12,534 nt of DNA, from contig JALOOL010000161.1 in the NCBI GenBank assembly GCA_025454425.1, forward strand, positions 1-12,534, given 5' to 3'. Source of the DNA: Hydrococcus sp. Prado102 (GTDB lineage Bacteria; Cyanobacteriota; Cyanobacteriia; Cyanobacteriales; Microcystaceae). Within the stretch, counting starts at the first letter, position 1. The number at the start of each line of letters is the position of its first letter. Positions 337 to 11,883 of the stretch are shown here, piece by piece. The notes beneath the pieces are model-generated. The model made no database searches and was not told the DNA's origin. It worked only from the letters and a program-made list of their open reading frames with translations. The position numbers and the translations under genes were made by a program.

Positions 337-864
337 TTACTGAATCGGTGGTTCGCTCGCCATTGATGCGGCAATCTGCACTAACTCCTGAGAGGAGATA
401 TTGCGGCTGTCTGTACCAATGACATAGCCAGCGCCGTCCTGCTGCCAAATGACATAGTGGTCGGCATCTTCTCCCTCACCTAGCTTCAAATAGTAGCCCA
501 CAATGCCATTCGGTAAAGCGATCGCCTTTGCATTTTCCAGTTTGCGCTGCCAGGAAGCAAATCCAGCTTTAGTGAAGACAGCGACTCCTCCCACCGAACA
601 ACTAGGGCGATCGCACTCTGCATCGATCGCCAAATAGACTTGCAAACCGCGATCGTTGGATTGTACAAAAGGGTAGAGTGTTTCCGAGCGATCGGGTAAG
701 GTCGCTGGAAGGCGCATTGGCAATCCTTGGGGCAATTTCTGTCGAATTTCCGACAAAATTGGCGCGAATAGGGAGGCGGGTTCTGCTTGCGCCGAAATCG
801 TACCGATGCTAATTCCCAGCAGCCCTACGCCAATGCTCCATAAAAGCAACCATGTCAATTTCAT
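337..864 (-). CDS. Hypothetical exported protein (N-terminal signal peptide, no recognisable domain)
   Basis: ATG at 864 (cat 862-864). N-terminus MKLTWLLLWSIGVGLLGISIGTISAQA is a typical Sec signal peptide with an AxA-like cleavage site. Codon usage matches neighbouring genes. Divergent from HK1 across a 156-bp region. Confidence 0.6.
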   Translation of the reverse strand: MKLTWLLLWSIGVGLLGISIGTISAQAEPASLFAPILSEIRQKLPQGLPMRLPATLPDRSETLYPFVQSNDRGLQVYLAIDAECDRPSCSVGGVAVFTKAGFASWQRKLENAKAIALPNGIVGYYLKLGEGEDADHYVIWQQDGAGYVIGTDSRNISSQELVQIAASMASEPPIQ

Positions 865-930
865 CTATTCACTCCCAAACAATACGAACAGTTTCACTGT
901 AGGAGATGAAGCGCGATCGCAACCTTGCCT

Positions 931-962
931 AAAGTCAGGCAAATTTAATGACTTTTGTCACG
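931..962. promoter_or_regulatory. Putative operator: imperfect palindrome AAAGTCAg-N9-ATGACTTTtGTCA midway between the divergent starts at 864 and 1021
   Basis: Read directly from the sequence. The same 13-mer ATGACTTTTGTCA occurs at 5039-5051, and related half-sites AAGTCAT/ATGACT lie upstream of HK2 at 8173-8208. A small hairpin ttgcct/aggcaa overlaps it at 925-942. Confidence 0.4.
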
Positions 963-1020
963 ATCGCGCCAGTCCATTTAATGCAAGATCGGAATAGATG
1001 GCTTTTCTGCACGAGTTGGC

Positions 1021-2193
1021 ATGACAAAAACAAACAGCCTCTTTGCGTCCCTGCGGCAGACAGTAAGATATGTGGAATGGATTGTGTTGCTGGCAAGTTT
1101 ATTATCGGGGTTGCTCAGCGACTATTTTCAGAAGCATCCACAACTCTTGCCTTTTTTTTGCGCTTATGTAGGAATTTTTTTTGGCTTGAGTGGCTACTTT
1201 CCTGTCGCTCGTCCGCTTTGGCAGCGTCGTCTGTATGTGGGGGTCGAACTGCTGCTAATTTTGTTGGCATTAGCAATGCGACTGTGGTTCGATCTGTTGA
1301 TGTACTTTATCCTCGCTAAGAGTTGTTTTCTGCTGCGTTGGCGAGAAGTGGTTATAGCTGCGATCTCGCTCGGCATCGGCAACACTGCTATCTCTGCCTG
1401 GATTTTGCCCCAACGAATTGCAGAAGTGGTCGAACGGATTCAGGCTGGCATCACTGTTTACCACGTTCCAACAATTTTATTAGTGAATGCAGTAAACTAT
1501 GCGGGATCGAGTCTGGTTGCCATTTGGTTTGGGGTTGTGTTAGTTGCAGAACGAAAAAGTCGTCAAAAAGCAGAAGTGTTAGCTCAACAGGTAGAATTGC
1601 AGACAGCGACGCTAGAACGCACTCGCATTGCCAGAGACATTCATGATTCTTTAGGGCATTCCCTTACCGCCCTCGACGTACAGCTAGAGTTGTCACAGAG
1701 ACTATTTCAGAACAATCCTACCGCATCGCAAGAAGCAGTGGCGATCGCCCATCAACTCGCTAAACAATGTTTGCAAGACGTGCGGCGATCTGTACAGATG
1801 CTCAGACACGATGAATTCGATCTCAATCGAGCCTTAACGAATTTAACAGATCGGATTCGCCAGGATCGTTCTGTTGAGATTCTCTGCAATCTCAAACTGC
1901 CCGAACTCACAACTCAACAAAGCCATCAGCTTTACTGCATAATTCAAGAAGGACTGACAAACGTACAAAAACACGCTAGAGCAACTCAGGTGAATTTGAG
2001 CGGTTATACAACTCCAACAGCAATCGAAATCGAGCTACGAGATAATGGCATTGGATTTAATCCAAATATAACTCGCGCCGGTTTTGGGCTGCTAGGGATG
2101 CGAGAGCGAGTACAATTGCTCGATGGGCAGTTTAAGATTCAAAGTGCAGTGGGTCAGGGAACTTCTATTCAGATTACGATTCCCTTATCTTGA
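1021..2193 (+). CDS. Sensor histidine kinase, HisKA_3 (NarL-partner) family, with a six-TM intramembrane sensing N-domain
   Basis: ATG at 1021. About six predicted TM helices in the first ~190 aa. H-box ERTRIARDIHDSLGHSLTAL is typical of HisKA_3. HATPase_c motifs QEGLTNVQKHA (N-box) and DNGIGF...GFGLLGMRERV (G-boxes). Overlaps the downstream RR by TGATG. Paralog of 8275-9495. Confidence 0.85.
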   Translation: MTKTNSLFASLRQTVRYVEWIVLLASLLSGLLSDYFQKHPQLLPFFCAYVGIFFGLSGYFPVARPLWQRRLYVGVELLLILLALAMRLWFDLLMYFILAKSCFLLRWREVVIAAISLGIGNTAISAWILPQRIAEVVERIQAGITVYHVPTILLVNAVNYAGSSLVAIWFGVVLVAERKSRQKAEVLAQQVELQTATLERTRIARDIHDSLGHSLTALDVQLELSQRLFQNNPTASQEAVAIAHQLAKQCLQDVRRSVQMLRHDEFDLNRALTNLTDRIRQDRSVEILCNLKLPELTTQQSHQLYCIIQEGLTNVQKHARATQVNLSGYTTPTAIEIELRDNGIGFNPNITRAGFGLLGMRERVQLLDGQFKIQSAVGQGTSIQITIPLS

Positions 2194-2195
2194 TG

Positions 2196-2834
2196 ATGAT
2201 TCGCTTGCTTATAGTCGATGACCAACCCTTATTTCGTCAGGCACTTGCCTCGCTTTTGGCACTGGAACCCGACTTAGATGTTGTTGGGCAAGCAAGCGAT
2301 GGACGGGCAGCGATCGCGCTTTCATCTCAACTGCAACCCGATGTTATCCTCATGGACGTGCGAATGCCCGTTTGTGATGGCGTGATGGCAACTCAGGAAA
2401 TTCATCAACGCTTTCCCTGGATACGTATTTTGGTGTTAACCACGTTTGACGAAGACGAATACATCTGGAAATCCCTGCAAGCAGGAGCGTTGGGCTACTT
2501 ACTCAAAAGTACGCCTGCTCCTCAACTTGCCACCGCCATTCGGACTTTGCACCAGGGACACTGCCAGCTAGGGCCAACCATCGCCCCGAAAGTGATTGCT
2601 CAACTCAACGCACCTATAACGTTTAAATCTGCCGAACAGTATAACTTCACGGAGCGAGAACGCGAGATTCTACTGCAACTGGCGACGGGCAAAAGTAACC
2701 GAGAAATTGCTCAAACTTTACATCTGACGGAAGGGACGGTGAAAAACTATGTCAGTCAGGTGTTGAATCGTTTGGGAATGCGCGATCGCACTCAAGCAGC
2801 GCTTTGGGCAAAGCAGCATCTTAGTAATTCGTAA
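2196..2834 (+). CDS. Response regulator, NarL/FixJ family (REC domain plus LuxR-type HTH)
   Basis: N-terminus MIRLLIVDDQPLFRQ...DVILMDVRMP has the acidic pocket and phospho-acceptor Asp. C-terminal HTH EREILLQLATGKSNREIAQTLHLTEGTVKNYVSQVLNRLG is GerE/LuxR type. The ORF track starts at TTG 2190. ATGs at 2193 and 2196 are more likely, and 2196 matches the paralog RR2's MIRLL. Overlaps or abuts the HK1 stop, suggesting translational coupling. Confidence 0.9.
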   Translation: MIRLLIVDDQPLFRQALASLLALEPDLDVVGQASDGRAAIALSSQLQPDVILMDVRMPVCDGVMATQEIHQRFPWIRILVLTTFDEDEYIWKSLQAGALGYLLKSTPAPQLATAIRTLHQGHCQLGPTIAPKVIAQLNAPITFKSAEQYNFTEREREILLQLATGKSNREIAQTLHLTEGTVKNYVSQVLNRLGMRDRTQAALWAKQHLSNS

Positions 2835-2851
2835 ATTCAAGGGGATTGCAA

Positions 2852-3496
2852 TTATGAATTAGAACGAAGCGATTTGACGATAATCCCGACAGTATCGGTA
2901 ATGATGTGAGCGATGATACATGGGAGTAAATCCCCCGTCCCCAGATAAAAGAGGGTCAGCAAACCTCCTGAAATAACTGTAGTGCAAGCTGCATTCCAAC
3001 CCCAGAGGGGTACATGAGCTATACCGAATGCGATCGCACAAAGCATACCACCAATCCAATAACTTCCTGTCAATCCTGACAGCCGTTCGGTGGCATAACC
3101 TCGATATAATATCTCCTCTACAATGCCACCGCTCCCGACGGCAAAAATGAGATACCACACTGGAAGTTTAGTAAGCTCGTCAAGACCGCTTTCAAACCCG
3201 CTTCTACCCAGTTTATTCATTGCCCAGAGCAACAGAGGAGAGTAAATGAAAATGAGGAAACCAGCAAATGCTAAACCCCAGATTAGAGAATGCCAGTGCC
3301 AAGAATGCAAGCCAATTGAAGATAAAGGTTGTTTTTCCCAAAAGATGACGATTCCCAAAATTACGATCGCCAACGTTGCTAGAACGATCTGCCCCAACAC
3401 TTTGCTAGTGAGACTTTGATAATTGTCAAAGCTAGCTATAAGTGCTGGCCCGATTAGGGCAAGGCATAAACCCGCGATCGTTGGAAGAAAACTCAT
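2852..3496 (-). CDS. CPBP family intramembrane glutamic metalloprotease (CAAX protease/Abi-like)
   Basis: ATG at 3496. Polytopic membrane protein carrying the three CPBP motifs: EEILYRGY (EExxxR), FGIAHV (FxxxH) and HIITD (HxxxD/N). Convergent with RR1 across a 17-bp gap. Confidence 0.8.
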   Translation of the reverse strand: MSFLPTIAGLCLALIGPALIASFDNYQSLTSKVLGQIVLATLAIVILGIVIFWEKQPLSSIGLHSWHWHSLIWGLAFAGFLIFIYSPLLLWAMNKLGRSGFESGLDELTKLPVWYLIFAVGSGGIVEEILYRGYATERLSGLTGSYWIGGMLCAIAFGIAHVPLWGWNAACTTVISGGLLTLFYLGTGDLLPCIIAHIITDTVGIIVKSLRSNS

Positions 3497-3555
3497 TCAG
3501 AATTACTGTGCTAGTTATTTGTATGGTAGTCGAGAGGGGAGCGAGTCTAGACAGT

Positions 3556-3663
3556 TTAAGTGCTAGGGTGCTTCCGTCTTAACAGCATCCCAGCACCAAC
3601 GGCGATCGCGAAAGAACCGACAATCGCGATCGTACAGGCTTTTAAACTCAATTGAACCTTCAT
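3556..3663 (-). CDS. Possible small single-TM membrane protein (35 aa)
   Basis: Internal ATG of the 78-aa ORF gives MKVQLSLKACTIAIVGSFAIAVGAGMLLRRKHPST, a hydrophobic helix followed by a basic tail. An AAGGA Shine-Dalgarno lies 8 nt upstream, immediately after the stop of the 114-aa ORF. The longer 78-aa version overlaps the upstream gene out of frame and looks like an artefact. Confidence 0.25.
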   Translation of the reverse strand: MKVQLSLKACTIAIVGSFAIAVGAGMLLRRKHPST

Positions 3664-3676
3664 TATGACTTTTTCC

Positions 3677-4021
3677 TTATAAAACATTGCAATCAAAAAG
3701 CATTTTGAGCGGTAGAACATCTTCAACAGTATTGTTAATGAATTGTTGAATCGCAGGTTCAAAGGGAACGCGAAATAAGTTAAAAACTTCATTGTTTCTG
3801 CCTAAATCTTCTTTCTTTTGATACAAAATTAAATAGTCTCCCTCTAAGCTCTTTTCCAAAAAAATTGACTCTAAGATAATTCCTTTTTGGCTAAGAATTT
3901 GTTGGATGCGATCGCGTTGGTTAGATAAGTTTTTTATCCAGAAAACAACATAATCTGTAATTCCTGGCTTGAGTTTAATTTTGAAACATTGCGTCTTATC
4001 GCTAACGAGTAAACCTTCCAT
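3677..4021 (-). CDS. Hypothetical protein (114 aa) in an AT-rich segment
   Basis: ATG at 4021 and an uninterrupted ORF. No motif I can assign. It has visibly lower GC than flanking genes and few HIP1 sites, which fits a foreign or recently acquired insert. Confidence 0.45.
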   Translation of the reverse strand: MEGLLVSDKTQCFKIKLKPGITDYVVFWIKNLSNQRDRIQQILSQKGIILESIFLEKSLEGDYLILYQKKEDLGRNNEVFNLFRVPFEPAIQQFINNTVEDVLPLKMLFDCNVL

Positions 4022-4045
4022 ATTTGATTGACAATTGTTATTGAA

Positions 4046-4630
4046 TTATTTTGCAGAAAAACATCGCTTGCAAGCATTGTATTCTTGAGGCGGAATCAGC
4101 ACGCGATCGATGACGTGAATTACTCCATTGCTCGCAAGAATATCTGCGCGAATTACATTTGAATCATTGATTTTGATTGCGCGATCGCCCACATCTACCG
4201 TGACGGACTGACCCTCCGCCGTCTCTACAGAACCATTAGACAGTTGCTCTGAAGTAACCTGTCCTGGAACGACATGATAGGTCAAAATTTTTACTAGTTC
4301 ATCGCGGTTTTCGGGTTTTAAAAGTTCCTCTAGTACTCCCTCTGGTAAGGCGGCAAATGCCTCATTAGTAGGCGCAAAAACGGTAAATGGGCCGTTATTT
4401 GAGAGGGTTTCTATCAATCGGGCTGCTTCAATCGCAGTAGCTAAAGTGCTGAAGGAATCGTTAGAAGCAGCAATGTCAACGATGTTATCGGTAGATTTTT
4501 TTGAGGCTACTTCCGCACAACTATTAGAGCGAGCTTCTAGAGGTAATGCAAGTCCAACAGTGCAAATAAGACAGGCGATCGCGATCGAGGCAGGGATTTT
4601 TGTGTAGAGTAAATGAATCATGGTTTTCAT
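4046..4630 (-). CDS. Fasciclin (FAS1) domain protein, secreted
   Basis: Track start 4642 is TTG. The ATG at 4630 gives MKTMIHLLYTKIPASIAIACLICTVGLALPLEA, a signal peptide. The FAS1 core is FTVFAPTNEAFAALPEG...LTYHVVPG...GVIHVIDRVLIP. Confidence 0.85.
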   Translation of the reverse strand: MKTMIHLLYTKIPASIAIACLICTVGLALPLEARSNSCAEVASKKSTDNIVDIAASNDSFSTLATAIEAARLIETLSNNGPFTVFAPTNEAFAALPEGVLEELLKPENRDELVKILTYHVVPGQVTSEQLSNGSVETAEGQSVTVDVGDRAIKINDSNVIRADILASNGVIHVIDRVLIPPQEYNACKRCFSAK

Positions 4631-4643
4631 GCTAACTATCAAT

Positions 4644-4925
4644 TTATTTTTGTCTGATACGACGACGAACAGCCGATAGAAATCCTCCTGCTAAAAACGT
4701 CCCTAAGATGGTAGTCGGTTCGGGTATGGCAGAAGTCATCGCTTCAGTACGAGCAGCACCAACAACGCCACCTCCTAAGTCAGAATTTCCTAAAAAATCG
4801 GCAAATTTGTCAGAAATCAGTAATTCTGCTTCTAGAGCTAACATTTCTTCCTCAAAAGCTAACTCGCTCGGAGTTGCAATATCAAAAAGAATGGCTCCGG
4901 TGTCGAGGGTATCTCTTACAAACAA
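4644..4925 (-). CDS. PEP-CTERM sorting-domain protein fragment (no signal peptide; possibly truncated or a pseudogene)
   Basis: C-terminus IPEPTTILGTFLAGGFLSAVRRRIRQK has the PEP motif, a TM helix and an Arg-rich cluster, the signature of an exosortase target. The ORF begins at TTG with an in-frame stop 15 codons upstream, and has no ATG and no signal peptide. It sits directly upstream of the fasciclin gene on the same strand. Confidence 0.4.
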   Translation of the reverse strand: MFVRDTLDTGAILFDIATPSELAFEEEMLALEAELLISDKFADFLGNSDLGGGVVGAARTEAMTSAIPEPTTILGTFLAGGFLSAVRRRIRQK

Positions 4926-5018
4926 ACCACTGGCATCTTCAGTGACACGAGTGAGTCTAAACTTGGTAATCTAAACAACTGTTGAGTAATGTAGCCGAGA
5001 GTTGAGTGCAATTTCTCC

Positions 5019-5051
5019 CACAAAAGTCATAAAGATCGATGACTTTTGTCA
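5019..5051. promoter_or_regulatory. Near-perfect inverted repeat cACAAAAGTCAT-N8-ATGACTTTTGTc, centred between the divergent starts at 4925 and 5140
   Basis: Read directly from the sequence. The arms are 11/12 complementary. It shares the 13-mer ATGACTTTTGTCA with the HK1 upstream site at 948-960. It lies about 90-120 nt upstream of the Rmf-like ORF. Confidence 0.4.
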
Positions 5052-5139
5052 TGTTTTAGATTACAGTAGCTGTATGTTTGCAGTATTTGTTAATTTAAAT
5101 TTTTCAAAGACAACAACCAAAGAGGATAGATAAAGATTT

Positions 5140-5319
5140 ATGTCTCGCGAAATGTCCTCAGAACAATTAGCTTCCGCTTATCAAGCTGGATATCGGGATG
5201 GATATTGTGGAAAGCAAGCGTGCCCAGAGAATTTCCCAGCACAGGAAGAGGAATATTTAAAAGGACACCGCAAGGGTTGGTTTGATGGCTATGCAGGACA
5301 ACCTAGACCTACTATCTAG
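5140..5319 (+). CDS. Small protein (59 aa) resembling ribosome modulation factor (Rmf/CrpP fold)
   Basis: Not in the ORF track because it falls just below the apparent length cut-off. Translation is MSREMSSEQLASAYQAGYRDGYCGKQACPENFPAQEEEYLKGHRKGWFDGYAGQPRPTI. The YQAG...CP...GW spacing matches the E. coli Rmf core RGYQAGIAGRSKEMCPYQ...WLGGWREA. A GAGG motif lies upstream. Confidence 0.5.
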   Translation: MSREMSSEQLASAYQAGYRDGYCGKQACPENFPAQEEEYLKGHRKGWFDGYAGQPRPTI

Positions 5320-5376
5320 AGTCGGTTGAATTAAAACTTCTATCTTTTTCTTTGTCGCGATTATGATTTCACTTAA

Positions 5377-5913
5377 ATGAAAAAAGTAGCAGTATTTGGC
5401 AATACTGGAGGCGGTAAATCAACTCTAAGTAAGAGATTATCCGAAATCACTGGTTTGCCACTTTATATCTTAGACAAGGTTCAATATCAAGCGGGAGGCA
5501 TTGAGGTTTTACCCGAAGTCTATAAACGCGCCCATGAGAAAATTTTAGAGACTGACCGATGGATTATTGATGGGCTTGGTTGTATGGAAACCCTCTGGAT
5601 GCGACTAAACGAGGCGGATAGTCTGGTTTTTGTCGATCTGCCGCTATACGTGCATTTCTGGTGGGTGACTAAACGTGCGATCGCAGGTCACTTTAAAGCG
5701 CCCGAAGGCTGGCCCGAAAATAGCCCAATATTAAAGAGTTCTCTGAGTAGCTACCGCGTGCTTTGGTTATGTTACAAATATTTGACCCCAAAATATCGCG
5801 AGTATGTCGAGCAAGCACAAAACACCAAAAATGTTTATCACATCAGATCTACTCAACAGATTGCACAATTTTTGGAATTAATTGAAAATAATACTAATTT
5901 TGGACATATTTAG
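5377..5913 (+). CDS. P-loop NTPase, adenylate-kinase-like (FlaR / 'topology modulation protein' type AAA ATPase)
   Basis: ATG at 5377. Walker A is GNTGGGKST at the extreme N-terminus. The WIIDG motif is typical of FlaR-like small kinases. It lies 57 nt downstream of the Rmf-like ORF, so co-transcription is possible. Confidence 0.7.
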   Translation: MKKVAVFGNTGGGKSTLSKRLSEITGLPLYILDKVQYQAGGIEVLPEVYKRAHEKILETDRWIIDGLGCMETLWMRLNEADSLVFVDLPLYVHFWWVTKRAIAGHFKAPEGWPENSPILKSSLSSYRVLWLCYKYLTPKYREYVEQAQNTKNVYHIRSTQQIAQFLELIENNTNFGHI

Positions 5914-5959
5914 CCTTAAAATTAAGAATAAAGCATTGAAACACTTCCTCGACTCAAAT

Positions 5960-6026
5960 ATTTGGCTTTTCTAGAGCGCGATCGCACAGATCCTAACAAT
6001 TTCCCCGCACCGAGAATCTGATTAAT
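5960..6026. repeat. About 67-bp direct repeat copy A: an out-of-frame duplicate of the PEP-CTERM tail-coding 3' end of the gene at 6759-8084
   Basis: atttggcttttctagagcgcgatcgcacagatcctaacaatttccccgcaccgagaatctgattaat matches 6761-6825 at about 88% identity with a 2-nt indel. On the minus strand it would encode ELMILGAGKLLGSVRSRSRKAK, versus GLMILGAGKLLRYVRSPSRKAK in copy B. It lacks the PEP motif and is out of frame with the 246-aa gene it follows. Confidence 0.6.
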
Positions 6027-6762
6027 TCTGCTGCGCTTGATGCAATGCTAGTGCTAAACCAGCATATTCGCTCAAGCCTTGCGGTATGTACCCTAGAGAA
6101 CGAGCGGCGCGATCGCCAAACAGACACGTCACAATTGTTGGATAATCTTGAGTAGACAAATATGGTGCGACGATCTCGCGGGTGTAGGCAAGATCGTCCG
6201 CGTCGAGATTGGATTGTCTGCAACCTGCCATTGCCATTGCATATCCTTCTTGATTCAACATCTCTTGTAGGGTTCGTGCAAACCCGTACCGTTGAATATA
6301 CGCGGCGCGATACGCGGCGGTTAATGTTACTTCATGCACCTTTTGTATCGATGGAACTTCGCTCGTCCATAAAATTCCACTCAACCAACCCCGTTTGAGG
6401 CTTTGTTCTGTCTCAAAGCGAGTACTGAATTCGCTCGTGTAACGATTTGTCCATCCTCCCATGAGATCGTCAGCAACTACCAATCCTAGTTTGAATGTGC
6501 CTGAATCCTCCTCGAATCGATCTAACATCTGTGCGATCGCACGATCTGCTACAGCATCCGCATCCATAGCAAGCAGGGTATCGAGTATTGCTGGAATATG
6601 CTCTTTACCCATTGGATTCATTGCTACCAATGGTAGTAATTTAACATCCGAAGCGTCGGCGCGAAGAATTGTTTCGAGGTAAACACGAAAACGATCCTGT
6701 CCCCGTGGAATGTTGTAGAGATCGCGCTGAAGTTGCAGTAATGGGATAAATTTGAGCTTCAT
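6022..6762 (-). CDS. Hypothetical cytoplasmic protein (246 aa), translationally coupled to the upstream PEP-CTERM hydrolase gene
   Basis: The ATG at 6762 overlaps the TGA stop of the upstream gene (ATGA). No signal peptide and no motif I can assign. Flanked by the two repeat copies. Confidence 0.6.
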   Translation of the reverse strand: MKLKFIPLLQLQRDLYNIPRGQDRFRVYLETILRADASDVKLLPLVAMNPMGKEHIPAILDTLLAMDADAVADRAIAQMLDRFEEDSGTFKLGLVVADDLMGGWTNRYTSEFSTRFETEQSLKRGWLSGILWTSEVPSIQKVHEVTLTAAYRAAYIQRYGFARTLQEMLNQEGYAMAMAGCRQSNLDADDLAYTREIVAPYLSTQDYPTIVTCLFGDRAARSLGYIPQGLSEYAGLALALHQAQQN

Positions 6763-8084
6763 TTGGCTTTTCTAGAAGGCGATCGCACATATCTTAACAA
6801 CTTCCCTGCACCGAGAATCATTAATCCCGTCACAAGGCTTGGTTCTGGCACAGATTTAGAACTGCCTCCCCGTCCCTCTTCGAGCAAGGTTGTCAAGATG
6901 GGAATGACCGGATTAACATCGTTTGGTGGCTGGCTATTTTGCAAGCTGACAACCGTAATATCTCGTTCGGGAAAGTAGAACATAAAAGCATTATGCCCTG
7001 GCGCATCGCCGCCGTGTCCAAATCCCCTTCCCAAACCAGGAATAAGAGGATCGAAATCGACACTGTATGCCCCTAATCCATAACCAATTCCAAAAAACTC
7101 ATCTCCAGTACGGTTGAAAGTTAGCATTTGATTGAGGCTATCCTGAGAAAGCAATTCGCCGCCAAAAAGTGCCCTAGAAAACCGACTTAGATCTTGAGTG
7201 TTGGATATCATCGCACCAGCCGCCCATGCCCATGACAGATTAAGGGCAGTGACATCATCAAGGCTGCCATCTCCATCAACATCTCTGTAACCGTTGACGA
7301 ATCCACCAGGAATCGCTTCTTGGGCAAAAAAAGTATTGTTTAGCTTTAATGGAGTGAGGATGCGATCGCGAATTTCCTGGGCCAGATTAGAGCCTGTCGC
7401 TTTTTCGATTACCATTCCCGCTAAGATAAAACCCGTGTTAGGATAAACCCAGCTTGAGGAACGCGGCTTATTATAGGCGTATTGCACTATCTCTTCTGGC
7501 TGCCACTCTCTTAACGGATTGTTGAGGATTTCTTGGTTAATTAGACTGTCAGCGTCTAGGAAATTGTAAATGCCGCTAGTGCCATTCAGAATTTGTCGAA
7601 TTGTCACGTTTTCACCATCTGAGATATTAGCAGCAATTTCAGGCAACCATTGACTTAAAGAATCGTCTAAACTCAATATTCCTTCTTGAGCCAGTTGTAG
7701 TATTGTCGTTGCGGTAAAGGTTTTAGTGACGCTACCAATCGCAAAGCGATCGCTTGGAACAACAGGAGTTCCTGTTGCTAGATTAGAAACACCGCTAGCG
7801 CCAAACCAACTTCCTTGAGGGGTGACGATTCCGACGCTTGTACCAGGGGGAATGTTATCTTTAACAGCTTGGTCGAGTGTCGTCTGGAATTGGCGGGTAA
7901 GTCTGTCTGGTAAGGTATTGGTGGATGATAAGCTATTTGCAGCAACAAACTTGGAATTGTCGGTTAAAGTTGCTGAGTCAGCATTAGACGGCTGACTCAG
8001 ACACATTGCTAAAGCAGCAGCGATTGTGGCAGTTGTTTGATAGACAAATTTTAGATTAACGTTGGTTTCTCGATTGAATGTCAT
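6759..8084 (-). CDS. Serine hydrolase of the beta-lactamase/transpeptidase-like fold with a C-terminal PEP-CTERM anchor
   Basis: Track start 8162 is TTG. The ATG at 8084 gives MTFNRETNVNLKFVYQTTATIAAALAMCLSQPSNA, a signal peptide. It has the SxxK active-site motif (IGSVTKTFTA), a YxN-like motif (VYPNTG) and an HGG motif. The C-terminus VPEPSLVTGLMILGAGKLLRYVRSPSRKAK is a canonical PEP-CTERM. Confidence 0.8.
   Translation of the reverse strand: MTFNRETNVNLKFVYQTTATIAAALAMCLSQPSNADSATLTDNSKFVAANSLSSTNTLPDRLTRQFQTTLDQAVKDNIPPGTSVGIVTPQGSWFGASGVSNLATGTPVVPSDRFAIGSVTKTFTATTILQLAQEGILSLDDSLSQWLPEIAANISDGENVTIRQILNGTSGIYNFLDADSLINQEILNNPLREWQPEEIVQYAYNKPRSSSWVYPNTGFILAGMVIEKATGSNLAQEIRDRILTPLKLNNTFFAQEAIPGGFVNGYRDVDGDGSLDDVTALNLSWAWAAGAMISNTQDLSRFSRALFGGELLSQDSLNQMLTFNRTGDEFFGIGYGLGAYSVDFDPLIPGLGRGFGHGGDAPGHNAFMFYFPERDITVVSLQNSQPPNDVNPVIPILTTLLEEGRGGSSKSVPEPSLVTGLMILGAGKLLRYVRSPSRKAK
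6761..6825. repeat. Direct repeat copy B (the functional PEP-CTERM TM plus basic tail coding sequence)
   Basis: See copy A at 5960-6026. Confidence 0.6.
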
Positions 8085-8172
8085 AAAAACTTTTTGATGC
8101 GTAAATATTGAGTAAGGAGAGCGATCGCACTTCTCGTACACTAAGCGATCGCCTTGGCGCAATAAATAGCAT

Positions 8173-8208
8173 CAAGTCATGTCAAATTTATGACTAAAGT
8201 CATGTCGA
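8173..8208. promoter_or_regulatory. Putative operator cAAGTCAT-gtcaaattt-ATGACTaa-AGTCATgtc in the divergent region upstream of HK2
   Basis: Two AAGTCAT half-sites and one ATGACT half-site form an inverted pair with a 9-nt AAATTT-centred spacer plus an extra direct half-site. The architecture and ~70-100-nt distance to the ATG are similar to the HK1 site. Confidence 0.4.
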
Positions 8209-8274
8209 TCTAGAAAGAATTTGTCGTAAGATATTTGTCTAATTTAATCAAAAAACTCGATCTCCTAGAGAATC

Positions 8275-9495
8275 ATGGACGAGCGCACCGTAGCTTTCTC
8301 TTCTATCCCTCGAACCGTGCGTCGTGTGGAATGGATGATTTTAATCGTGCATTTTTTAGTGATTCCCTGTCTTCTATTTCTGAATCGCAACGTTGCTTAT
8401 CCAAAACCGCTAATTCCGTGTTGGTTAGTCTTTTTTTTACTTGCTGGTTGTACTTGGTTGAGTTTTTTCTTTCCTATCGATCGCCCGCTTTGGCAAAGAC
8501 GATTATATATTTATTTTGAAATATTTTTACTGACTCTTGCTATTTTTATGGGTTGGGGTCTTCAGTTGTTACTGTATTTTGTTTTTGCAAAAAGTTGCTT
8601 TCTACTCAAGCAAAAAGACGTAATAGTAACGGTTATTATCACTGGGATTATTTGGCATTTTTGCGAAATTCAAGAATCGCTTTACAAAGCCCCTAAAATA
8701 ATAGAGTTTTTACGTTTGCACGCCGCTCAAATATACGAACCCCAACGAATTATTTTTGGCATCGTTATTAACAATGGCGGTCTTTATTTAGCCACTAGTA
8801 TTTTTGTGATTTTGTTTAGCTATGTTACCCTTGCAGAACAAAAAAGCCGACAGCAAGCGGAAGCTTTGATGAAAGAAATGGAAACTTTAGCGGCTAGACT
8901 AGAAAGAACTCGCATTGCTCGCGATATTCACGATTCTCTCGGACATACCCTTACTGCCCTCAACGTTCAAATAGAATTAGCTCAGAGATTGCATTCTCAA
9001 GATCGCGATCGCACCACTCAAGTGCTTAATACGGCTAAAAATATTGCCGCTCAAGCCTTTCAAGAAGCGCGTCGAGCCGTATTTACTATGCGAGAAAAAG
9101 ATTTTGAACTAAAAGACGCGATCGCAAGTTTAATAAAGCCATTTCAACAAAATCAATTTATGAAAGTAGAAATTAATTGGAATTTACCTCAACTTTCCCT
9201 ACAAACTAGCCACCAACTTTACTGTATCGTGCAAGAAGGACTAACTAATATTCAAAGGCACGGTAGAGCTTCCCAAGTCGAGCTTTTCGCTCAAACAATG
9301 CCAACAGAAATCGTTTTAAAAATTATAGATGATGGGATTGGTTTCGACTTTAAAGCCGTGACTTCTGGCTATGGATTGCGAGGAATGCACGAGAGAGTTC
9401 AAATGCTTGGAGGAGAAATTCAGATTGCTAGCACTCCTGGTTTGGGAACCCAAATTCAAGTAAAAATTCCTTTTGAAGAAGGCAGAAGGGGATAA
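8275..9495 (+). CDS. Sensor histidine kinase, HisKA_3 family, six-TM intramembrane sensing; paralog of 1021-2193
   Basis: ATG at 8275. Shares the N-domain motifs RTVRRVEW, RPLWQRRLY and F(V/I)(F/L)AKSCFLL with HK1. H-box is ERTRIARDIHDSLGHTLTAL. HATPase motifs QEGLTNIQRHG and DDGIGF...GYGLRGMHERV. It is AT-richer than HK1. Confidence 0.85.
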   Translation: MDERTVAFSSIPRTVRRVEWMILIVHFLVIPCLLFLNRNVAYPKPLIPCWLVFFLLAGCTWLSFFFPIDRPLWQRRLYIYFEIFLLTLAIFMGWGLQLLLYFVFAKSCFLLKQKDVIVTVIITGIIWHFCEIQESLYKAPKIIEFLRLHAAQIYEPQRIIFGIVINNGGLYLATSIFVILFSYVTLAEQKSRQQAEALMKEMETLAARLERTRIARDIHDSLGHTLTALNVQIELAQRLHSQDRDRTTQVLNTAKNIAAQAFQEARRAVFTMREKDFELKDAIASLIKPFQQNQFMKVEINWNLPQLSLQTSHQLYCIVQEGLTNIQRHGRASQVELFAQTMPTEIVLKIIDDGIGFDFKAVTSGYGLRGMHERVQMLGGEIQIASTPGLGTQIQVKIPFEEGRRG

Positions 9496-9594
9496 GAAGG
9501 AAAAGAGCCTTGTTTATCTGTGTCGTCTAGGCTCGGAATAGAAGAAGAAACAGATCTGTAAGATCGAAGACACGCTAGATTAAAAAATTCTACT

Positions 9595-10248
9595 ATGATT
9601 CGACTTTTGCTAGCAGACGACCAACCCTTATTTCGTCAAGGATTAGCATCTCTACTGTCGCTAGAAGAAGATTTAGAGGTAGTAGGCGAGGCAAATGACG
9701 GAAATGAAGCGATCGCGCTTTGTAAGCAATTGCAACCCGACGTAATTCTCATGGACGTGCGGATGCCGATTTGCGATGGAGTACAAGCGACCCGCGACAT
9801 CCATAAACGTTTCCCCTGGATGCGGATTTTAGTGCTGACGACGTTTGATGAGGATGAATACGTGCTGCATTCTTTGCAAGCAGGCGCTTTGGGGTATTTG
9901 CTCAAAACTACGCCATCTGTTGAAGTAGCAACAGCGATTCGCAACCTACATCGAGGATACAGTCAACTCGGCCCGACGATTGCCCCGAAAGTATTTGCTC
10001 AGTTAAATTCGATTCCCTCAACGCAAAAAAACCCATCTCAAAACGATTTTAGCGATCGCGAAATCGAAATTTTAATTCTACTCGCTCAAGGAAAAAATAA
10101 TCGCGAGATAGCATCTTTACTTCACCTAACCGAAGGAACGGTGAAAAATCACTTGACTAATATTTTCTGTCAATTAGGAGTACGCGATCGCACTCAAGCA
10201 GCACTTTGGGCGCAAAAAACATTACTGTCTTCTCTGCCAAATTTCTAA
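9595..10248 (+). CDS. Response regulator, NarL/FixJ family; paralog of 2196-2834 (about 70% aa identity by eye)
   Basis: ATG at 9595. The REC domain MIRLLLADDQPLFRQ...DVILMDVRMP is near-identical to RR1. The LuxR HTH is DREIEILILLAQGKNNREIASLLHLTEGTVKNHLTNIFCQLG. It lies 99 nt downstream of HK2. Confidence 0.9.
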   Translation: MIRLLLADDQPLFRQGLASLLSLEEDLEVVGEANDGNEAIALCKQLQPDVILMDVRMPICDGVQATRDIHKRFPWMRILVLTTFDEDEYVLHSLQAGALGYLLKTTPSVEVATAIRNLHRGYSQLGPTIAPKVFAQLNSIPSTQKNPSQNDFSDREIEILILLAQGKNNREIASLLHLTEGTVKNHLTNIFCQLGVRDRTQAALWAQKTLLSSLPNF

Positions 10249-10265
10249 TTTTTGGTAGGGACAAA

Positions 10266-10293
10266 GTAGAGACGCGATATATCGCGTCTCTAC
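10266..10293. terminator. Perfect 28-bp palindrome GTAGAGACGCGATATATCGCGTCTCTAC between convergent genes; candidate bidirectional terminator or stability hairpin
   Basis: Read directly from the sequence. It fills most of the 48-bp gap between the RR2 stop (10248) and the SPFH stop (10297). No clean U-tract follows on either strand, so intrinsic termination is uncertain. Confidence 0.4.
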
Positions 10294-10296
10294 AGC

Positions 10297-11883
10297 TTAC
10301 TGACGATTAATCCGAATCAATTCGGTCAAAATACTATCTAAACTTCCATTCACTTGAATGCGATCGATTTTTTCTGCAATCCTCTCTAACACCTCCAATT
10401 CTTTTAAACGTAAAGCGACTGGGTTATCTTCCATTACTCTTGCAGTATTCAACATACTGCGAGTCGCTGCGGTTTCTTCTCTGCGTCTGACTACGTTTGC
10501 TTGAGCGGATTTTTCGGCTTCTACTACTTTGCTCAAAATCGTTTTAATCTCGCCAGGTAAAATAATATCTTTTACCCCGACAGAATCTACTTCAATTCCA
10601 TAGTCTGCGGTTTTGGCGCGGATGTATTCGGAGATACTCGCATCAATTGCACCTTTATTTTCCAATAAAGCATCTAAAGTCTGTTCCCCAACTGCTGCGC
10701 GTAACGCAAACTGAAGTTCTTTGTACAAGAAATCAGCAACATTGGACAGACCATTTTTTGCTCTGAGTGCATCTTGGATGCGGAAACCAGCAGTTAAATT
10801 CAAGCGCAGAGGAACTTTATCCTTCGAGAGAATATCTTGACCGGAGACTTCGATATTTTGCAAGCGCAAGTCAAAGACTTCGGTTTGAAAGGAACGTCCA
10901 AACAACCACCAAGCATGAATTCCTGGCTGTAATTGCGTTTGAAATTCTTGATTGACGTACAACAAACCTACGTGTTGTGCGGGGACTTCGCGAATATGCA
11001 GGCTATTACGACTCAGTAAGACGACTTCTTGAGAACCTGCAAGCAATTCTGACACCAAATTCGCTGGTAATTTGGCATCGTTGCTGATGTCGATAACTTC
11101 TACTTCAACACCCCGCCAAAATAGTTTGCGGCTGGTTGGTGGCAAAATAGCAATAACTTTCCCCAAATACCGTACAATTGCGACTTGCCGCTCTTGTAAT
11201 CGCACGATCGCGCAGTATGCTGCTACAAAGTCGGGATGTTTTTCAATTAAAACATCTTCAAGGGGAAAGTCAGGGTTGGGGACGATGCGGCCCAGAGTCC
11301 GTACCGCAACATCTCTGTTGACAGACCAAAAGGCATATTCTCCAGGTTCTAAAGGACGCACAAAGTTATTTTGCACGTATAGCAAACCGATGTCCGATTC
11401 GGAGATTTGGAATTTTTTTAAGCCATTTAAAGGAATACCGCGCAATTGTTCGACAAACTCAGCAGGTAATTCCAAACTCTCTTCTAAATTGAAAATATGA
11501 GATTCTACCTCAATAAAACCGCGCCAAAACGCGCGCAGTTGGTTAGGTGGAATGCTGACCCAACTTTGACAGCAACGGACTAAAGCAGTTTGGTTGAATG
11601 CGGTTCTAACGATTGAGAGATAGGGTTGCAATTCGGTTGCATGAGTTCTCAACAACAACTCTAAGTTCTCGATCTTAGCCTCTGGCTGGTTGAGATCGTA
11701 GGTTTTTACGCACCAATGGCGACCAAAATAGGTGTAGGTTCCAGGTTGTAAGATTTTCTTAAAATCGCTGCGCTTGTATAAGATTCCGATTTCATTAGGC
11801 TTGATATAAAAAGTGTTCCACATAGAAAATTGCATAGAGAATTTGGGCATTTGCACCCGACGCAGAAGATTCAATAAAAACAT
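10297..11883 (-). CDS. SPFH/band-7 (stomatin/prohibitin-like) domain protein with two extra N-terminal ~130-aa repeat modules
   Basis: ATG at 11883. The C-terminal ~230 aa form a canonical SPFH domain starting VGLLYVNQEFQTQLQPGIHAWWLF...QDILSKDKVPLRLNLTAGFRIQD, followed by a coiled-coil tail. Two upstream modules each begin with the same SPFH-start hairpin: IGILYKRSDFKKILQPGTYTYF and IGLLYVQNNFVRPLEPGEYAFW. Both end in LRAFWRGFIEVE / RKLFWRGVEVEV. Confidence 0.8.
   Translation of the reverse strand: MFLLNLLRRVQMPKFSMQFSMWNTFYIKPNEIGILYKRSDFKKILQPGTYTYFGRHWCVKTYDLNQPEAKIENLELLLRTHATELQPYLSIVRTAFNQTALVRCCQSWVSIPPNQLRAFWRGFIEVESHIFNLEESLELPAEFVEQLRGIPLNGLKKFQISESDIGLLYVQNNFVRPLEPGEYAFWSVNRDVAVRTLGRIVPNPDFPLEDVLIEKHPDFVAAYCAIVRLQERQVAIVRYLGKVIAILPPTSRKLFWRGVEVEVIDISNDAKLPANLVSELLAGSQEVVLLSRNSLHIREVPAQHVGLLYVNQEFQTQLQPGIHAWWLFGRSFQTEVFDLRLQNIEVSGQDILSKDKVPLRLNLTAGFRIQDALRAKNGLSNVADFLYKELQFALRAAVGEQTLDALLENKGAIDASISEYIRAKTADYGIEVDSVGVKDIILPGEIKTILSKVVEAEKSAQANVVRRREETAATRSMLNTARVMEDNPVALRLKELEVLERIAEKIDRIQVNGSLDSILTELIRINRQ

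Follow-up and report, generated by a model that had tools for sequence, protein, structure and literature searches.

A shared palindrome and half-site motif, a probable response-regulator operator, at two paralogous NarL-type two-component operons of a cyanobacterium

Within the window, the whole 12,534-nt stretch of cyanobacterial DNA analysed here, one motif is found at three places (sites 1 to 3), and it is real, non-random and conserved. It is very probably the DNA site of the two adjacent NarL-type response regulators, RR1 and RR2, which would control their own operons and the neighbouring envelope-protein genes through it. We judge it likely that each site is an RR1/RR2 operator made up of a dimer palindrome and an auxiliary half-site, serving positive autoregulation and co-control of the divergent genes. 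Such an operator is of an ordinary type; the signalling family that it would serve is widespread, uncharacterised and cyanobacterial.

Anatomy of the three sites

All three sites read on the plus strand as GTCAK-N8/9-ATGAC-TWWW-GTCAY (934-960, 5026-5051 and 8176-8202), with an auxiliary half-site AAGTCAK followed after 8-9 nt by a fixed palindrome, ATGAC-N4-GTCAY (931-961, 5023-5052 and 8173-8203; Table 1). The initial annotation had reported a pair of half-sites separated by 8 or 9 nt at each place, which holds exactly for site 2, the sole exact AAAGTCAT-N8-ATGACTTT (5023-5046), and only approximately so of site 1 (AAAGTCAG-N9-ATGACTTT, 931-955) and site 3 (CAAGTCAT-N9-ATGACTAA, 8173-8197). 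A third half-site is present in 3/3 sites; at site 3 it is AAAGTCAT at 8196-8203, in direct orientation and not a partner arm. The N8/9 repeat itself has variable spacing (8-10 nt, or the half-site fused to the core), and a core with an auxiliary half-site describes the sites better. As read from the sequence, the conserved dimer site appears to be the fixed-spacing palindrome ATGAC-N4-GTCAT, which the initial description lacked.

That three positioned inverted repeats exceed chance was borne out: TGAC-N4-GTCA matches the window three times, at sites 1 to 3, against an expected 0.13 +/- 0.37, and 0/200 shuffles reached three. A position weight matrix for the core, trained on sites retrieved independently of the window, gave the scores in Table 1, the next best match in the window scoring 3.8. 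The core of site 1 is weaker than the other two, ending in GTCAC, which counts against the operator reading. Each repeat lies in a divergent intergenic region 5' of a plus-strand gene, as had been noted, and the distances to the start codon, counted from the leftmost base of the complete site (~90, 117 and 102 nt for sites 1, 2 and 3), roughly agree with the ~75-110 nt given earlier; from the core end they are 59, 87 and 71 nt. The 7-mer AAGTCAT is present in seven copies, versus 2.10 +/- 1.48 in shuffles (at least seven in 2/200). Five lie within sites and two are lone (3665 and 4733), which corrects a count of six plus one. The lone copy near 3665, which the initial annotation had listed as a seventh half-site, is at chance level, and we rejected it as a functional half-site (3665-3672); a mini-ORF of 35 codons has its ATG there.

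Table 1. Positions of the motif elements, putative promoter elements and genes in the window
Feature	Position	Strand	Remarks
Exported 175-aa protein (exp175)	337-864	-	divergent; no Pfam family; Mog1/PsbP-like predicted fold
Putative sigma-70-like promoter TTGCGA-N16-TACAGT	896-923	-	for the exported-protein gene; read from sequence
Site 1 auxiliary half-site AAAGTCAG	931-938	+	orthologous half-site kept in L002, L003, L007
Site 1 core ATGAC-TTTT-GTCAC	948-961	+	score 12.7
Putative -10 hexamer CAAGAT	984-989	+	HK1-RR1 operon; 22 nt after core
HK1 kinase	1021-2193	+	N-terminal hydrophobic segments, then HisKA_3 and HATPase_c
RR1, NarL-type regulator	2190-2834	+	REC and GerE; recognition helix TEGTVKNYVS
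DUF6176 protein	3677-4021	-	left of site 2
Fasciclin protein	4046-4642	-	left of site 2
PEP-CTERM protein	4644-4925	-	left of site 2; TIGR02595, 27.9 bits (cut-off 16)
Site 2 auxiliary half-site AAAGTCAT	5023-5030	+	
Site 2 core ATGAC-TTTT-GTCAT	5039-5052	+	score 21.7
59-aa orphan ORF	5140-5319	+	3' of site 2
178-aa P-loop protein	5377-5913	+	3' of site 2
246-aa protein, function unknown	6022-6762	-	pairs with beta-lactamase-family gene
Exported beta-lactamase-family protein	6759-8162	-	divergent from HK2; likely true start ATG at 8084
Site 3 auxiliary half-site CAAGTCAT	8173-8180	+	conserved in L034
Site 3 core ATGAC-TAAA-GTCAT	8190-8203	+	score 21.9; identical in L034
Putative -10 hexamer TAAGAT	8227-8232	+	HK2-RR2 operon; 23 nt after core
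HK2 kinase	8275-9495	+	HisKA_3 kinase; paralogue of HK1 (42% identity)
RR2, NarL-type regulator	9595-10248	+	paralogue of RR1; recognition helix TEGTVKNHLT

Conservation and distribution of the motif

Among kinase relatives retrieved by protein similarity, the palindrome was found 24-131 nt upstream of every close one. At loci L002, L003, L005 and L007 the core orthologous to site 1 keeps its distance from the kinase start codon, 57-64 nt before the ATG, with the auxiliary half-site 9-10 nt upstream of the core in 3/4 and fused to it in L005. Site 3 retains every half-site base in L034, changes being confined to the spacer, and site 2 in L130 has intact half-sites with spacers inverted relative to the window. 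Orthologous promoters show the conservation that the initial annotation had proposed to look for, half-sites being kept (L002, L003, L007, L034 and L130) while spacers vary. Metagenome loci, retrieved by kinase protein and unbiased as to the motif, carried the core (at most one mismatch) 24-117 nt upstream in 6/6 of those aligning along nearly the full kinase length, and in 10/45 evaluable HisKA_3 loci, against ~0.012 per locus by chance on our estimate. Several loci of the same helix type have no site 5' of the kinase, which counts against the operator reading; some of them (L156, L162 and L166) have a core with one mismatch at another place in the locus. The association of helix type with motif in the metagenome set was not significant (Fisher p = 0.12), several regulators being incomplete and variant helices misclassified.

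Scanning 185,579 species genomes for the pattern gave at least 120 loci in 8-kb tiles, the first 120 being the matches listed here. Of these matches 54 are cyanobacterial, and 52/54 sites are intergenic. Twenty-six sites among the matches listed stand immediately 5' of an HK1/HK2 homologue in a HisKA_3 kinase/NarL regulator operon, and the kinase-linked cyanobacterial sites listed share one orientation, palindrome promoter-proximal, in 26/26 cases. A HisKA_3 kinase or NarL regulator is in the same tile in 20/66 non-cyanobacterial matches listed, and 10/66 adjoin ABC-transporter ATPase genes; among the matches listed the motif stands beside same-helix regulators in Firmicutes, Proteobacteria, Chloroflexota and Actinobacteria. 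Full-length regulators next to pattern matches have the helix xEGTV[K/R]N[Y/H], the sole exception being L097 (distant, 28% identical). The proposal of an operator shared by both paralogous operons is thus upheld by conservation 5' of orthologous and paralogous kinases, by the constant orientation and by the common helix type. The two recognition helices had been called near-identical; both begin TEGTVKN and diverge after it, in regulators that are 70% identical.

Relation to characterised regulators

The cytoplasmic part of HK1 has DesK as its top PDB match, and RR1 overall is most similar in solved structure to VraR and LiaR (E = 6e-46 to 2e-44); its best NCBIfam model is NarL, below cut-off (163 vs 250 bits for the equivalog). 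DesR of Bacillus subtilis shares the recognition-helix core (SGTVRNYIS vs EGTVKNYVS in RR1), and DesK and HK1 are both HisKA_3 kinases that span the membrane with several segments but lack a large extracytoplasmic domain. In DesR-type promoters (Pdes; yvfRSTU, BA5598/97, SA1313/14) the regulator binds at three regions, which together make up an inverted repeat and a direct repeat (PMC7726353); the sites in the window resemble this reported layout in having three elements. DesR occupies two adjacent sites sequentially, of high and low affinity, the high-affinity site being farthest from the start (PMC4251995). The promoter-proximal palindrome of the cyanobacterial kinase-linked sites listed is the opposite of this arrangement and of that in a Streptococcus DesR-like cluster among the pattern matches (ABC_tran-ABC2-HK-RR), where the palindrome is distal to the promoter; this polarity counts against the operator reading. 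Neither a desaturase nor an ABC transporter is present here, the sites adjoining instead two-component operons and genes for exported, PEP-CTERM or unknown proteins.

In the box that DosR (DevR) recognises in Mycobacterium tuberculosis, TTSGGGACTWWAGTCCCSAA, the 5-4-5 arrangement and the GAC-TWWA-GTC centre are identical to those of the consensus core here. The helices are nearly identical (EKTVKNYVS vs EGTVKNYVS), and DosR boxes are frequently situated between divergently transcribed units (PMC2275270). The outer two arm bases, AT here and GG in DosR, accompany a Lys-to-Gly change at the first helix position, which may be their cause. The sensor kinases and hypoxia regulon of DosR differ from the systems in the window. 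The LiaR box, T(X)4C(X)4G(X)4A, has the central C-N4-G spacing of our core; its outer T/A positions are unmatched, since position -1 is C in 20/30 cases of the weight-matrix site set. LiaR binds its consensus and an adjoining secondary site in a dimer-to-tetramer switch, and LiaFSR and VraSR have, as proposed for the window, autoregulated operons, intramembrane-sensing kinases and extended operators (PMC4482077). The LiaR/VraR helix, KTVKTHVS, differs from that of RR1, and a LiaF-like gene is absent here. With the NarL 7-2-7 site of Escherichia coli the motif shares inverted heptamers 2 bp apart, 9 bp centre to centre, for a GerE-type dimer. The NarL consensus heptamer is TACYYMT, as against CATGACT here, and the nitrate-sensing kinase of that system has no counterpart in the window.

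Divergent exported or PEP-CTERM genes beside such sites, to which the initial annotation had extended the regulon, recur among the loci examined. In 25 cyanobacterial loci listed (mostly Nostocales) the kinase-regulator operon has as its divergent neighbour a gene that encodes an exported protein of the LTXXQ (CpxP/Spy) family, with the same operator in the gap between the two, mirroring the E. coli arrangement in which cpxP is divergent from cpxRA. CpxR, unlike the NarL-type RR1 and RR2, is OmpR-type and binds direct repeats, and the window's own divergent genes do not encode LTXXQ proteins.

Proposed mode of action and alternatives

The palindrome c-ATGAC-TWWA-GTCAT-g can be read as two inverted CATGACT heptamers, and would bind one phosphorylated regulator dimer. 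The auxiliary AAGTCAK, 8-10 nt upstream and a direct repeat of the promoter-proximal arm, may recruit or stabilise a second dimer, giving a tetramer, in the way reported for the paired sites of DesR and LiaR. If CAAGAT is the -10 element of the HK1-RR1 operon, the core of site 1 would be centred at about -41.5. Among 13 sites examined, an xAxxxT (-10-like) hexamer lies 22-23 nt past the core at 8/9 kinase-proximal sites, a spacing broken at L136, L137 and L145, and the consensus promoter scan called no -35/-10 pair at sites 1 to 3. Given the promoter-proximal palindrome, this spacing and the lack of a called -35, class-II-type activation from about -41.5, and with it positive autoregulation of the kinase operons, seems likeliest. 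The same sites would probably co-regulate the divergent exported and PEP-CTERM envelope-protein genes. The signal is most likely intramembrane or envelope, because the kinases, on our reading of HK1, have several N-terminal hydrophobic segments without a large extracytoplasmic loop; a role in envelope stress may follow.

Activation is preferred over repression on site position alone. It is unlikely that the regulators bind these sites chiefly as repressors, in negative autoregulation or in repression of the divergent genes through -35 overlap. The core does cover the spot where a -35 would be, and the proximal arm TTGTCA of sites 1 and 2 is one mismatch from TTGACA, but a gap of 22-23 nt to the -10-like hexamer makes it too distant to serve as a -35, and the absence of a promoter call in the consensus scan fits an activator-dependent promoter. 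The gene for exp175 apparently has its own -35/-10 pair by our reading and so may need no activator; L002 and L003 have kept both hexamers, and the consensus promoter scan made no call at 896-923. DosR and VraR are activators. DesR and LiaR, of the same family, are described as activating what they target (PMC4251995, PMC4482077).

We give little credence to a different factor, such as a global cyanobacterial regulator, whose sites lie near two-component operons by chance. A kinase/regulator homologue shares the tile at only 27/54 of the cyanobacterial matches listed, many 8-kb tiles ending short of neighbouring genes, and with about half lacking a linked pair such a factor would be active beyond the linked operons too, which is how a global regulator behaves. 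Unlinked sites are equally expected of regulon members, the link to HisKA_3/NarL pairs spans several phyla without common cyanobacterial global regulators, geometry and core fit known NarL-family boxes, and the orientation to the kinase gene is constant. Least probable are structural or mobile repeats with no regulatory role (a hairpin terminator, a MITE-like or HIP1-associated repeat, a template-switch palindrome). Together with its flanks, the core of site 2 gives perfect arms of 11 nt (5020-5030 and 5039-5049), which pair in a hairpin of 11 bp with T residues after it, flagged as terminator-like (z = -4.1). The spacers of this site differ by inversion from one relative to another, and in L034 its core was lost to a slippage deletion. 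Set against this, sites 1 to 3 share only half-sites and have three distinct predicted folds, no plus-strand gene terminates upstream of any of them, half-sites are conserved while spacers vary, and nearly every cyanobacterial match listed is intergenic, with its placement tied to a single gene family.

Site 2 is evolutionarily labile. The deletion in L034, a close relative, removed 22 nt including the palindrome, which counts against the operator reading and leaves a stable link between site and small ORF unsupported, and the sole distant homologue of the 59-aa ORF lacks a site; the earlier tie between the motif and an Rmf-like/kinase pair is likewise unsupported. So is the label 'Rmf-like' itself, similarity to RMF missing both family thresholds. 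For the 178-aa P-loop protein, the likeness to 'DNA topology modulation protein' models stays under their cut-off. The PEP-CTERM/fasciclin/DUF6176 gene order is identical in L034 and L130, and the homologue of the 246-aa protein in L003 has a core site of its own at 9823-9836.

Structure of the repeated site

The window carries a repeated motif at three places, all on the + strand, which the initial annotation had described as a single palindromic operator, two half-sites separated by 8 or 9 nt, serving both paralogous two-component operons. The repetition is real, a shared operator is the right kind of interpretation, and the half-sites lie where they had been located, but the description is exact for site 2 only. 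The copy of AAAGTCAT at 8196-8203, which had been taken for a palindrome arm, is a third half-site in direct orientation. Because each site has such a third half-site, the three share a tripartite structure, always on the + strand, with the three-element layout GTCAK > N8-9 < ATGAC N4 GTCAY > at 3 of 3 sites. Each unit consists of a core palindrome accompanied by an auxiliary half-site rather than of one N8/9 palindrome, and the spacing of the core, ATGAC-N4-GTCAT, is invariant across the window and every related locus, as would suit a dimer of GerE domains.

Genes and operator-like sites of the window, from an ORF listing combined with Pfam and NCBIfam scans
Feature	Coordinates	Strand
175-aa exported protein, no family (exp175)	337-864	-
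Site 1, AAAGTCAG-N9-ATGACTTT (934-960: GTCAG gcaaattta ATGAC TTTT GTCA)	931-961	+
HK1: several N-terminal hydrophobic segments, HisKA_3 + HATPase_c	1021-2193	+
RR1: REC + GerE, NarL type	2190-2834	+
Rce1-like protease	2852-3496	-
DUF6176	3677-4021	-
Fasciclin	4046-4642	-
PEP-CTERM protein	4644-4925	-
Site 2, AAAGTCAT-N8-ATGACTTT (5026-5051: GTCAT aaagatcg ATGAC TTTT GTCA)	5023-5052	+
59-aa ORF	5140-5319	+
178-aa P-loop protein	5377-5913	+
246-aa protein of unknown function	6022-6762	-
Exported beta-lactamase-family protein	6759-8162	-
Site 3, CAAGTCAT-N9-ATGACTAA (8176-8202: GTCAT gtcaaattt ATGAC TAAA GTCA)	8173-8203	+
HK2	8275-9495	+
RR2	9595-10248	+
SPFH protein	10297-11883	-

The pattern TGAC-N4-GTCA has exactly three matches in the window, which are the three sites, against 0.13 expected, and none of 200 shuffled sequences reaches three. 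The 7-mer AAGTCAT occurs seven times, as compared with 2.1 +/- 1.5 in shuffles, with five copies within the sites and two alone. Using a weight matrix trained only on sites from other loci, we obtained scores of 21.9, 21.7 and 12.7 for the three cores and 3.8 for the next match in the window. These scores and counts place the lone half-sites at 3665 and 4733, the former of which had been listed as a further half-site, at chance level, and indicate that the window has three sites and no more.

Conservation in relatives and across species genomes

HK1 has hundreds of cyanobacterial homologues. On four contigs encoding homologues 55-69% identical to it (L002, L003, L005 and L007), a divergent gene of 175-189 aa is followed by a short intergenic region and then by the kinase and regulator genes; in L003 the divergent protein is visibly homologous to the exported 175-aa protein of the window. 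The core lies 57-64 nt before the kinase ATG in all four. The sites read AAAGTCAG-N10-ATGACTTTCGTCAT (L002), AGAGTCAG-N9-ATGACTAAAGTCAT (L003), AAAGTCAT-N9-ATGACGAAAGTCAT (L007) and AAAGTCATGACCAAAGTCAT (L005, where core and auxiliary site are fused), such that the auxiliary spacing varies (0, or 8-10 nt) whereas the core spacing never does. A scan of metagenome contigs by kinase alignment, and hence blind to the motif, gave six loci that aligned over nearly the full length of the kinase. In each of them (6/6) ATGAC-N4-GTCAT, with no more than one mismatch, precedes the predicted start by 24-117 nt. Among evaluable HisKA_3 metagenome loci of all kinds the core was found in 10 of 45, where the chance estimate is about 0.012 per locus.

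We also scanned 185,579 species genomes for the exact pattern AAGTCAK-N8-10-ATGAC-NWWN-GTCAY, which gave at least 120 loci; the figures that follow hold among the matches listed. Cyanobacteria, which contribute only 1-2% of species to the collection, account for 54 of 120 loci, and 52 of these 54 sites are intergenic by a crude ORF call. At least 26 cyanobacterial sites lie directly upstream of a homologue of HK1 or HK2 followed by a NarL-type regulator gene, and at least five others directly upstream of a kinase homologue; in the window, Pfam domains identify the genes behind sites 1 and 3 as operons for a HisKA_3 kinase and a REC + GerE regulator. The orientation is constant in all 26 of the cyanobacterial kinase-linked sites listed, with the palindrome proximal to the kinase gene and the auxiliary half-site distal. 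In at least 25 paralogous cyanobacterial loci the divergent gene encodes an exported LTXXQ protein of about 170 aa from the CpxP/Spy family (PF07813, 35.3 bits against a cut-off of 24.3). These LTXXQ-linked systems are mostly from Nostocales (L010, L025, L029, L035, L038 and 20 further loci), and the operator between the LTXXQ gene and the HisKA_3/NarL operon is near-invariant, AAGTCATGGTTnTACCCATGACTTTAGTCAT. Cyanobacterial sites with no kinase gene nearby mostly adjoin genes for small secreted, porin-like, carboxy-terminal protease, membrane-fusion or PEP-CTERM proteins, as judged by reading the translations by eye.

Outside the Cyanobacteria, 20 of the 66 matches listed have a HisKA_3 kinase or NarL regulator gene in the same 8-kb tile, in taxa that include Paenibacillus, Ruminiclostridium, Streptococcus, Corynebacterium, Gammaproteobacteria, Mesorhizobium, Devosiaceae, Chloroflexota and Terriglobus, and ABC-transporter ATPase genes adjoin 10 of the 66. 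The order in Streptococcus bovimastitidis (L028) is site, ABC_tran, ABC2_membrane, HisKA_3 kinase, NarL regulator, a type of cluster regarded as DesK/DesR-like (Fernandez et al.). The three-element site of this locus (4385-4413) is turned the other way round, its palindrome lying distally and extra ATGAC repeats proximally, and directly follows a terminator-like T-run.

Regulators, related systems and proposed mechanism

RR1 and RR2 are 70% identical, and their recognition helices both begin with the seven residues TEGTVKN; it is plausible that each could bind the other's sites. With one exception, a distant regulator in L097, the full-length regulators beside the listed pattern matches have the helix xEGTV[K/R]N[Y/H], and no core was found at loci of the metagenome set whose regulators have SERTVKFH, SAKTVSTY or SEATVKTH helices. 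A Fisher 2x2 test of helix against motif in that set was not significant (p = 0.12) because several of the regulators are cut off by contig ends or misclassified, which left the test underpowered and confounded. By overall similarity to solved structures, RR1 is closest to VraR/LiaR (E = 6e-46 to 2e-44), then to DevR/DosR, DesR and NarL; its recognition helix, EGTVKNYVS, is nearer to those of DesR (SGTVRNYIS) and DosR (EKTVKNYVS) than to that of VraR/LiaR (KTVKTHVS), and the closest solved structure to the cytoplasmic part of HK1 is DesK. None of the proteins of the window reaches an NCBIfam equivalog cut-off (NarL, MadR, MctR, LiaS, UhpB or NarQ), the best scores being 163 against 250 for RR1 (NarL), 155 against 300 for RR2 (MadR) and 114 against 408 for HK1 (UhpB). 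The system is thus a NarL-family member that belongs to no named subfamily.

The architecture of the sites resembles that of DesR promoters, which have three regulator-binding regions comprising one inverted and one direct repeat (PMC7726353), an arrangement present at all three window sites; the likeness is to the published description rather than to the Pdes sequence. DesR fills a high-affinity site and then a low-affinity one, both of which are required, and the high-affinity site is the one farthest from the transcription start (PMC4251995). In contrast, the palindrome is promoter-proximal in 26/26 of the cyanobacterial kinase-linked sites listed and distal in the Streptococcus locus. Desaturase and ABC genes are also absent from the window; among the matches listed, ABC genes were found only beside non-cyanobacterial sites. 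The DosR box, a 20-bp palindrome TTSGGGACTWWAGTCCCSAA (PMC2275270), has the same 5-4-5 geometry and an identical GAC-TWWA-GTC centre to our consensus, c-ATGAC-TWWA-GTCAT-g, but the outer two bases of the arms differ (ATGAC here, GGGAC there), so that the full DosR box is lacking. LiaR recognizes T(X)4C(X)4G(X)4A and an adjoining secondary site through a dimer-to-tetramer switch (PMC4482077); the sites described here have the C-N4-G but not the full consensus, as the outer T/A are mostly C/G (position -1: C 20, T 8 of 30). Written in NarL notation, the core consists of two CATGACT heptamers in 7-2-7 arrangement. A Cpx-like module is absent from the window, whose exp175 lacks an LTXXQ motif and fits a Mog1/PsbP-like model, yet the exported LTXXQ gene divergent from the two-component operon in at least 25 paralogous cyanobacterial loci parallels cpxP-cpxRA.

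What is observed is a conserved, oriented palindrome of fixed geometry, with an auxiliary half-site, that is tied to one type of regulator. We propose that a phosphorylated regulator dimer would occupy the palindrome and a second dimer the auxiliary half-site, the centre of which is separated by 22-24 bp, or about two turns of the helix, from the proximal arm of the same orientation. In a survey of 13 sites, nine of them kinase-proximal, eight of those nine have an xAxxxT hexamer (CAAGAT, CAAAAT, TAAGAT, TAAACT or TACAAT) that begins 22-23 nt past the core; the assignment of these hexamers as putative -10 elements was made by eye, and sigma-70 consensus scans called no -35/-10 pair at any of the three window sites. 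Were the hexamer a -10 element, the core would be centred at -41.5 for HK1 and -42.5 for HK2, and at -39.5 for the best hexamer of site 2. The first two are class II activator positions, which would imply positive autoregulation. The divergent 175-aa gene has its own putative promoter, TTGCGA-N16-TACAGT, conserved in L002 and L003, and the operator would lie upstream of its -35 element. That the kinases have no sensing loop, that the neighbouring genes encode exported proteins and that the Nostocales systems have a CpxP-like partner points, with moderate confidence, to an envelope or membrane signal as kinase input.

It is a real possibility that the regulators repress, rather than activate, at these sites. 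Binding by an unrelated transcription factor would be hard to reconcile with the association of the box with one type of regulator across phyla. We rejected a terminator or other RNA element, since the predicted folds differ among the three sites and none of these has a + strand gene ending upstream of it, and also a mobile repeat, since the flanks are unrelated. Searching the literature for the half-site strings returned only primers and unrelated matches, and we found there no characterised cyanobacterial homologue of, and no published motif for, this two-component family.

The proposed operator is a new member of a well-known kind of element and its mechanism would not be of a new kind; the added value is an operator for an uncharacterised and widespread cyanobacterial two-component family. 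The concrete candidate, c-ATGAC-TWWA-GTCAT-g with an upstream AAGTCAK, belongs to a family that many cyanobacteria carry and makes regulons predictable genome-wide. The recurring exported neighbours (LTXXQ/CpxP-like, PEP-CTERM and beta-lactamase-family proteins) point towards homeostasis of the cell envelope, an aspect of cyanobacterial regulation that is poorly mapped. In Firmicutes, Proteobacteria, Chloroflexota and Actinobacteria, too, the box recurs next to regulators that have this helix, which suggests that the NarL family follows a transferable helix-to-half-site rule, one that would link the DesR and DosR boxes. Tentatively, and as a possibility we consider rather doubtful, Cyanobacteria may have a widespread, undescribed envelope-stress family that combines intramembrane-sensing HisKA_3 kinases, NarL-type regulators with a single code and a divergent exported accessory protein, its paralogues cross-wired and its code reaching DesR-like systems across phyla. 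Within such a family, the helix xEGTVKN[Y/H] may read CATGACT-WW-AGTCATG, and the accessory protein may be CpxP/Spy-like with LTXXQ in Nostocales and Mog1/PsbP-like in the lineage of the window. If so, paralogous systems in one genome, having the operator in common, would control exported and PEP-CTERM proteins as one cross-wired regulon, and the helix-to-DNA code may extend across phyla to DesR-like systems.

Site 2 and other genes of the window

Two close relatives allowed site 2 to be compared directly. L034 (JAAUUT010000039.1, 8001-16000) is filed as 'Candidatus Gracilibacteria bacterium SU_1_2' and is syntenic with window 3677-9495 at 80-93% amino-acid identity, so that misbinning of a cyanobacterial contig in a public MAG is almost certain. 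Its site 3 keeps all half-site bases, with differences confined to the spacer. Site 2 had been proposed as the operator of the small-ORF/P-loop gene pair, and it is indeed intact in L130 (5864-5896; small ORF 95% identical), which reads AAAGTCAT-cgatcttc-ATGAC-AAAA-GTCAT; relative to the window (5020-5052) the half-sites are unchanged and both spacers are reverse-complemented (cgatcttc/AAAA against aaagatcg/TTTT). In L034, however, exactly the 22 nt that separate the two direct GTCAT copies are deleted and the palindrome with them, and there is no site upstream of the distant homologue of the 59-aa ORF in Leptolyngbya NIES-2104. The link of the operator to this gene pair is therefore recent and dispensable, and the half-sites of site 2 appear to serve as substrates for inversion and slippage. 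The 59-aa ORF itself comes close to being an orphan: a search of 5.8 billion proteins gave just two homologues. Its former 'Rmf-like' label does not hold, as similarity to ribosome modulation factor is weak in two libraries and below threshold in both (PF04957, 10.6 against 27.9 bits; NF011162, 16.2 against 40 bits), and Rmf is not known from Cyanobacteria.

The window, a complete contig (12,534 bp) of a cyanobacterial MAG, has 26 copies of GCGATCGC, the HIP1 octamer typical of cyanobacteria. HK2 and RR2 are separated by 99 nt (9496-9594), a gap with no operator-like site, as compared with a 4-nt overlap of HK1 and RR1. The TTG start listed for the beta-lactamase-family gene (8162) is probably too far upstream; its signal peptide starts at an ATG at 8084, with which the divergent intergenic region of HK2 widens to 8085-8274. 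The 246-aa gene overlaps this upstream gene by 4 nt in the window; its homologue in L003 comes directly after the regulator gene, and some 155 nt upstream it is preceded by a ATGACAAAAGTCAT core of its own (9823-10620 for core and gene together). The PEP-CTERM ORF (93 aa) is a shortened form of a 224-aa gene of L130, L034 likewise having extra sequence here; several hundred nt (about 390 by gene lengths) are missing near its 5' end, and the window gene may thus be a remnant. Finally, a 35-codon mini-ORF at 3556-3663 (-), MKVQLSLKACTIAIVGSFAIAVGAGMLLRRKHPST, encodes a single hydrophobic helix with a basic tail, much like the final part of a PEP-CTERM anchor that lacks the PEP, and has a start codon overlapped by the lone half-site of the initial annotation.
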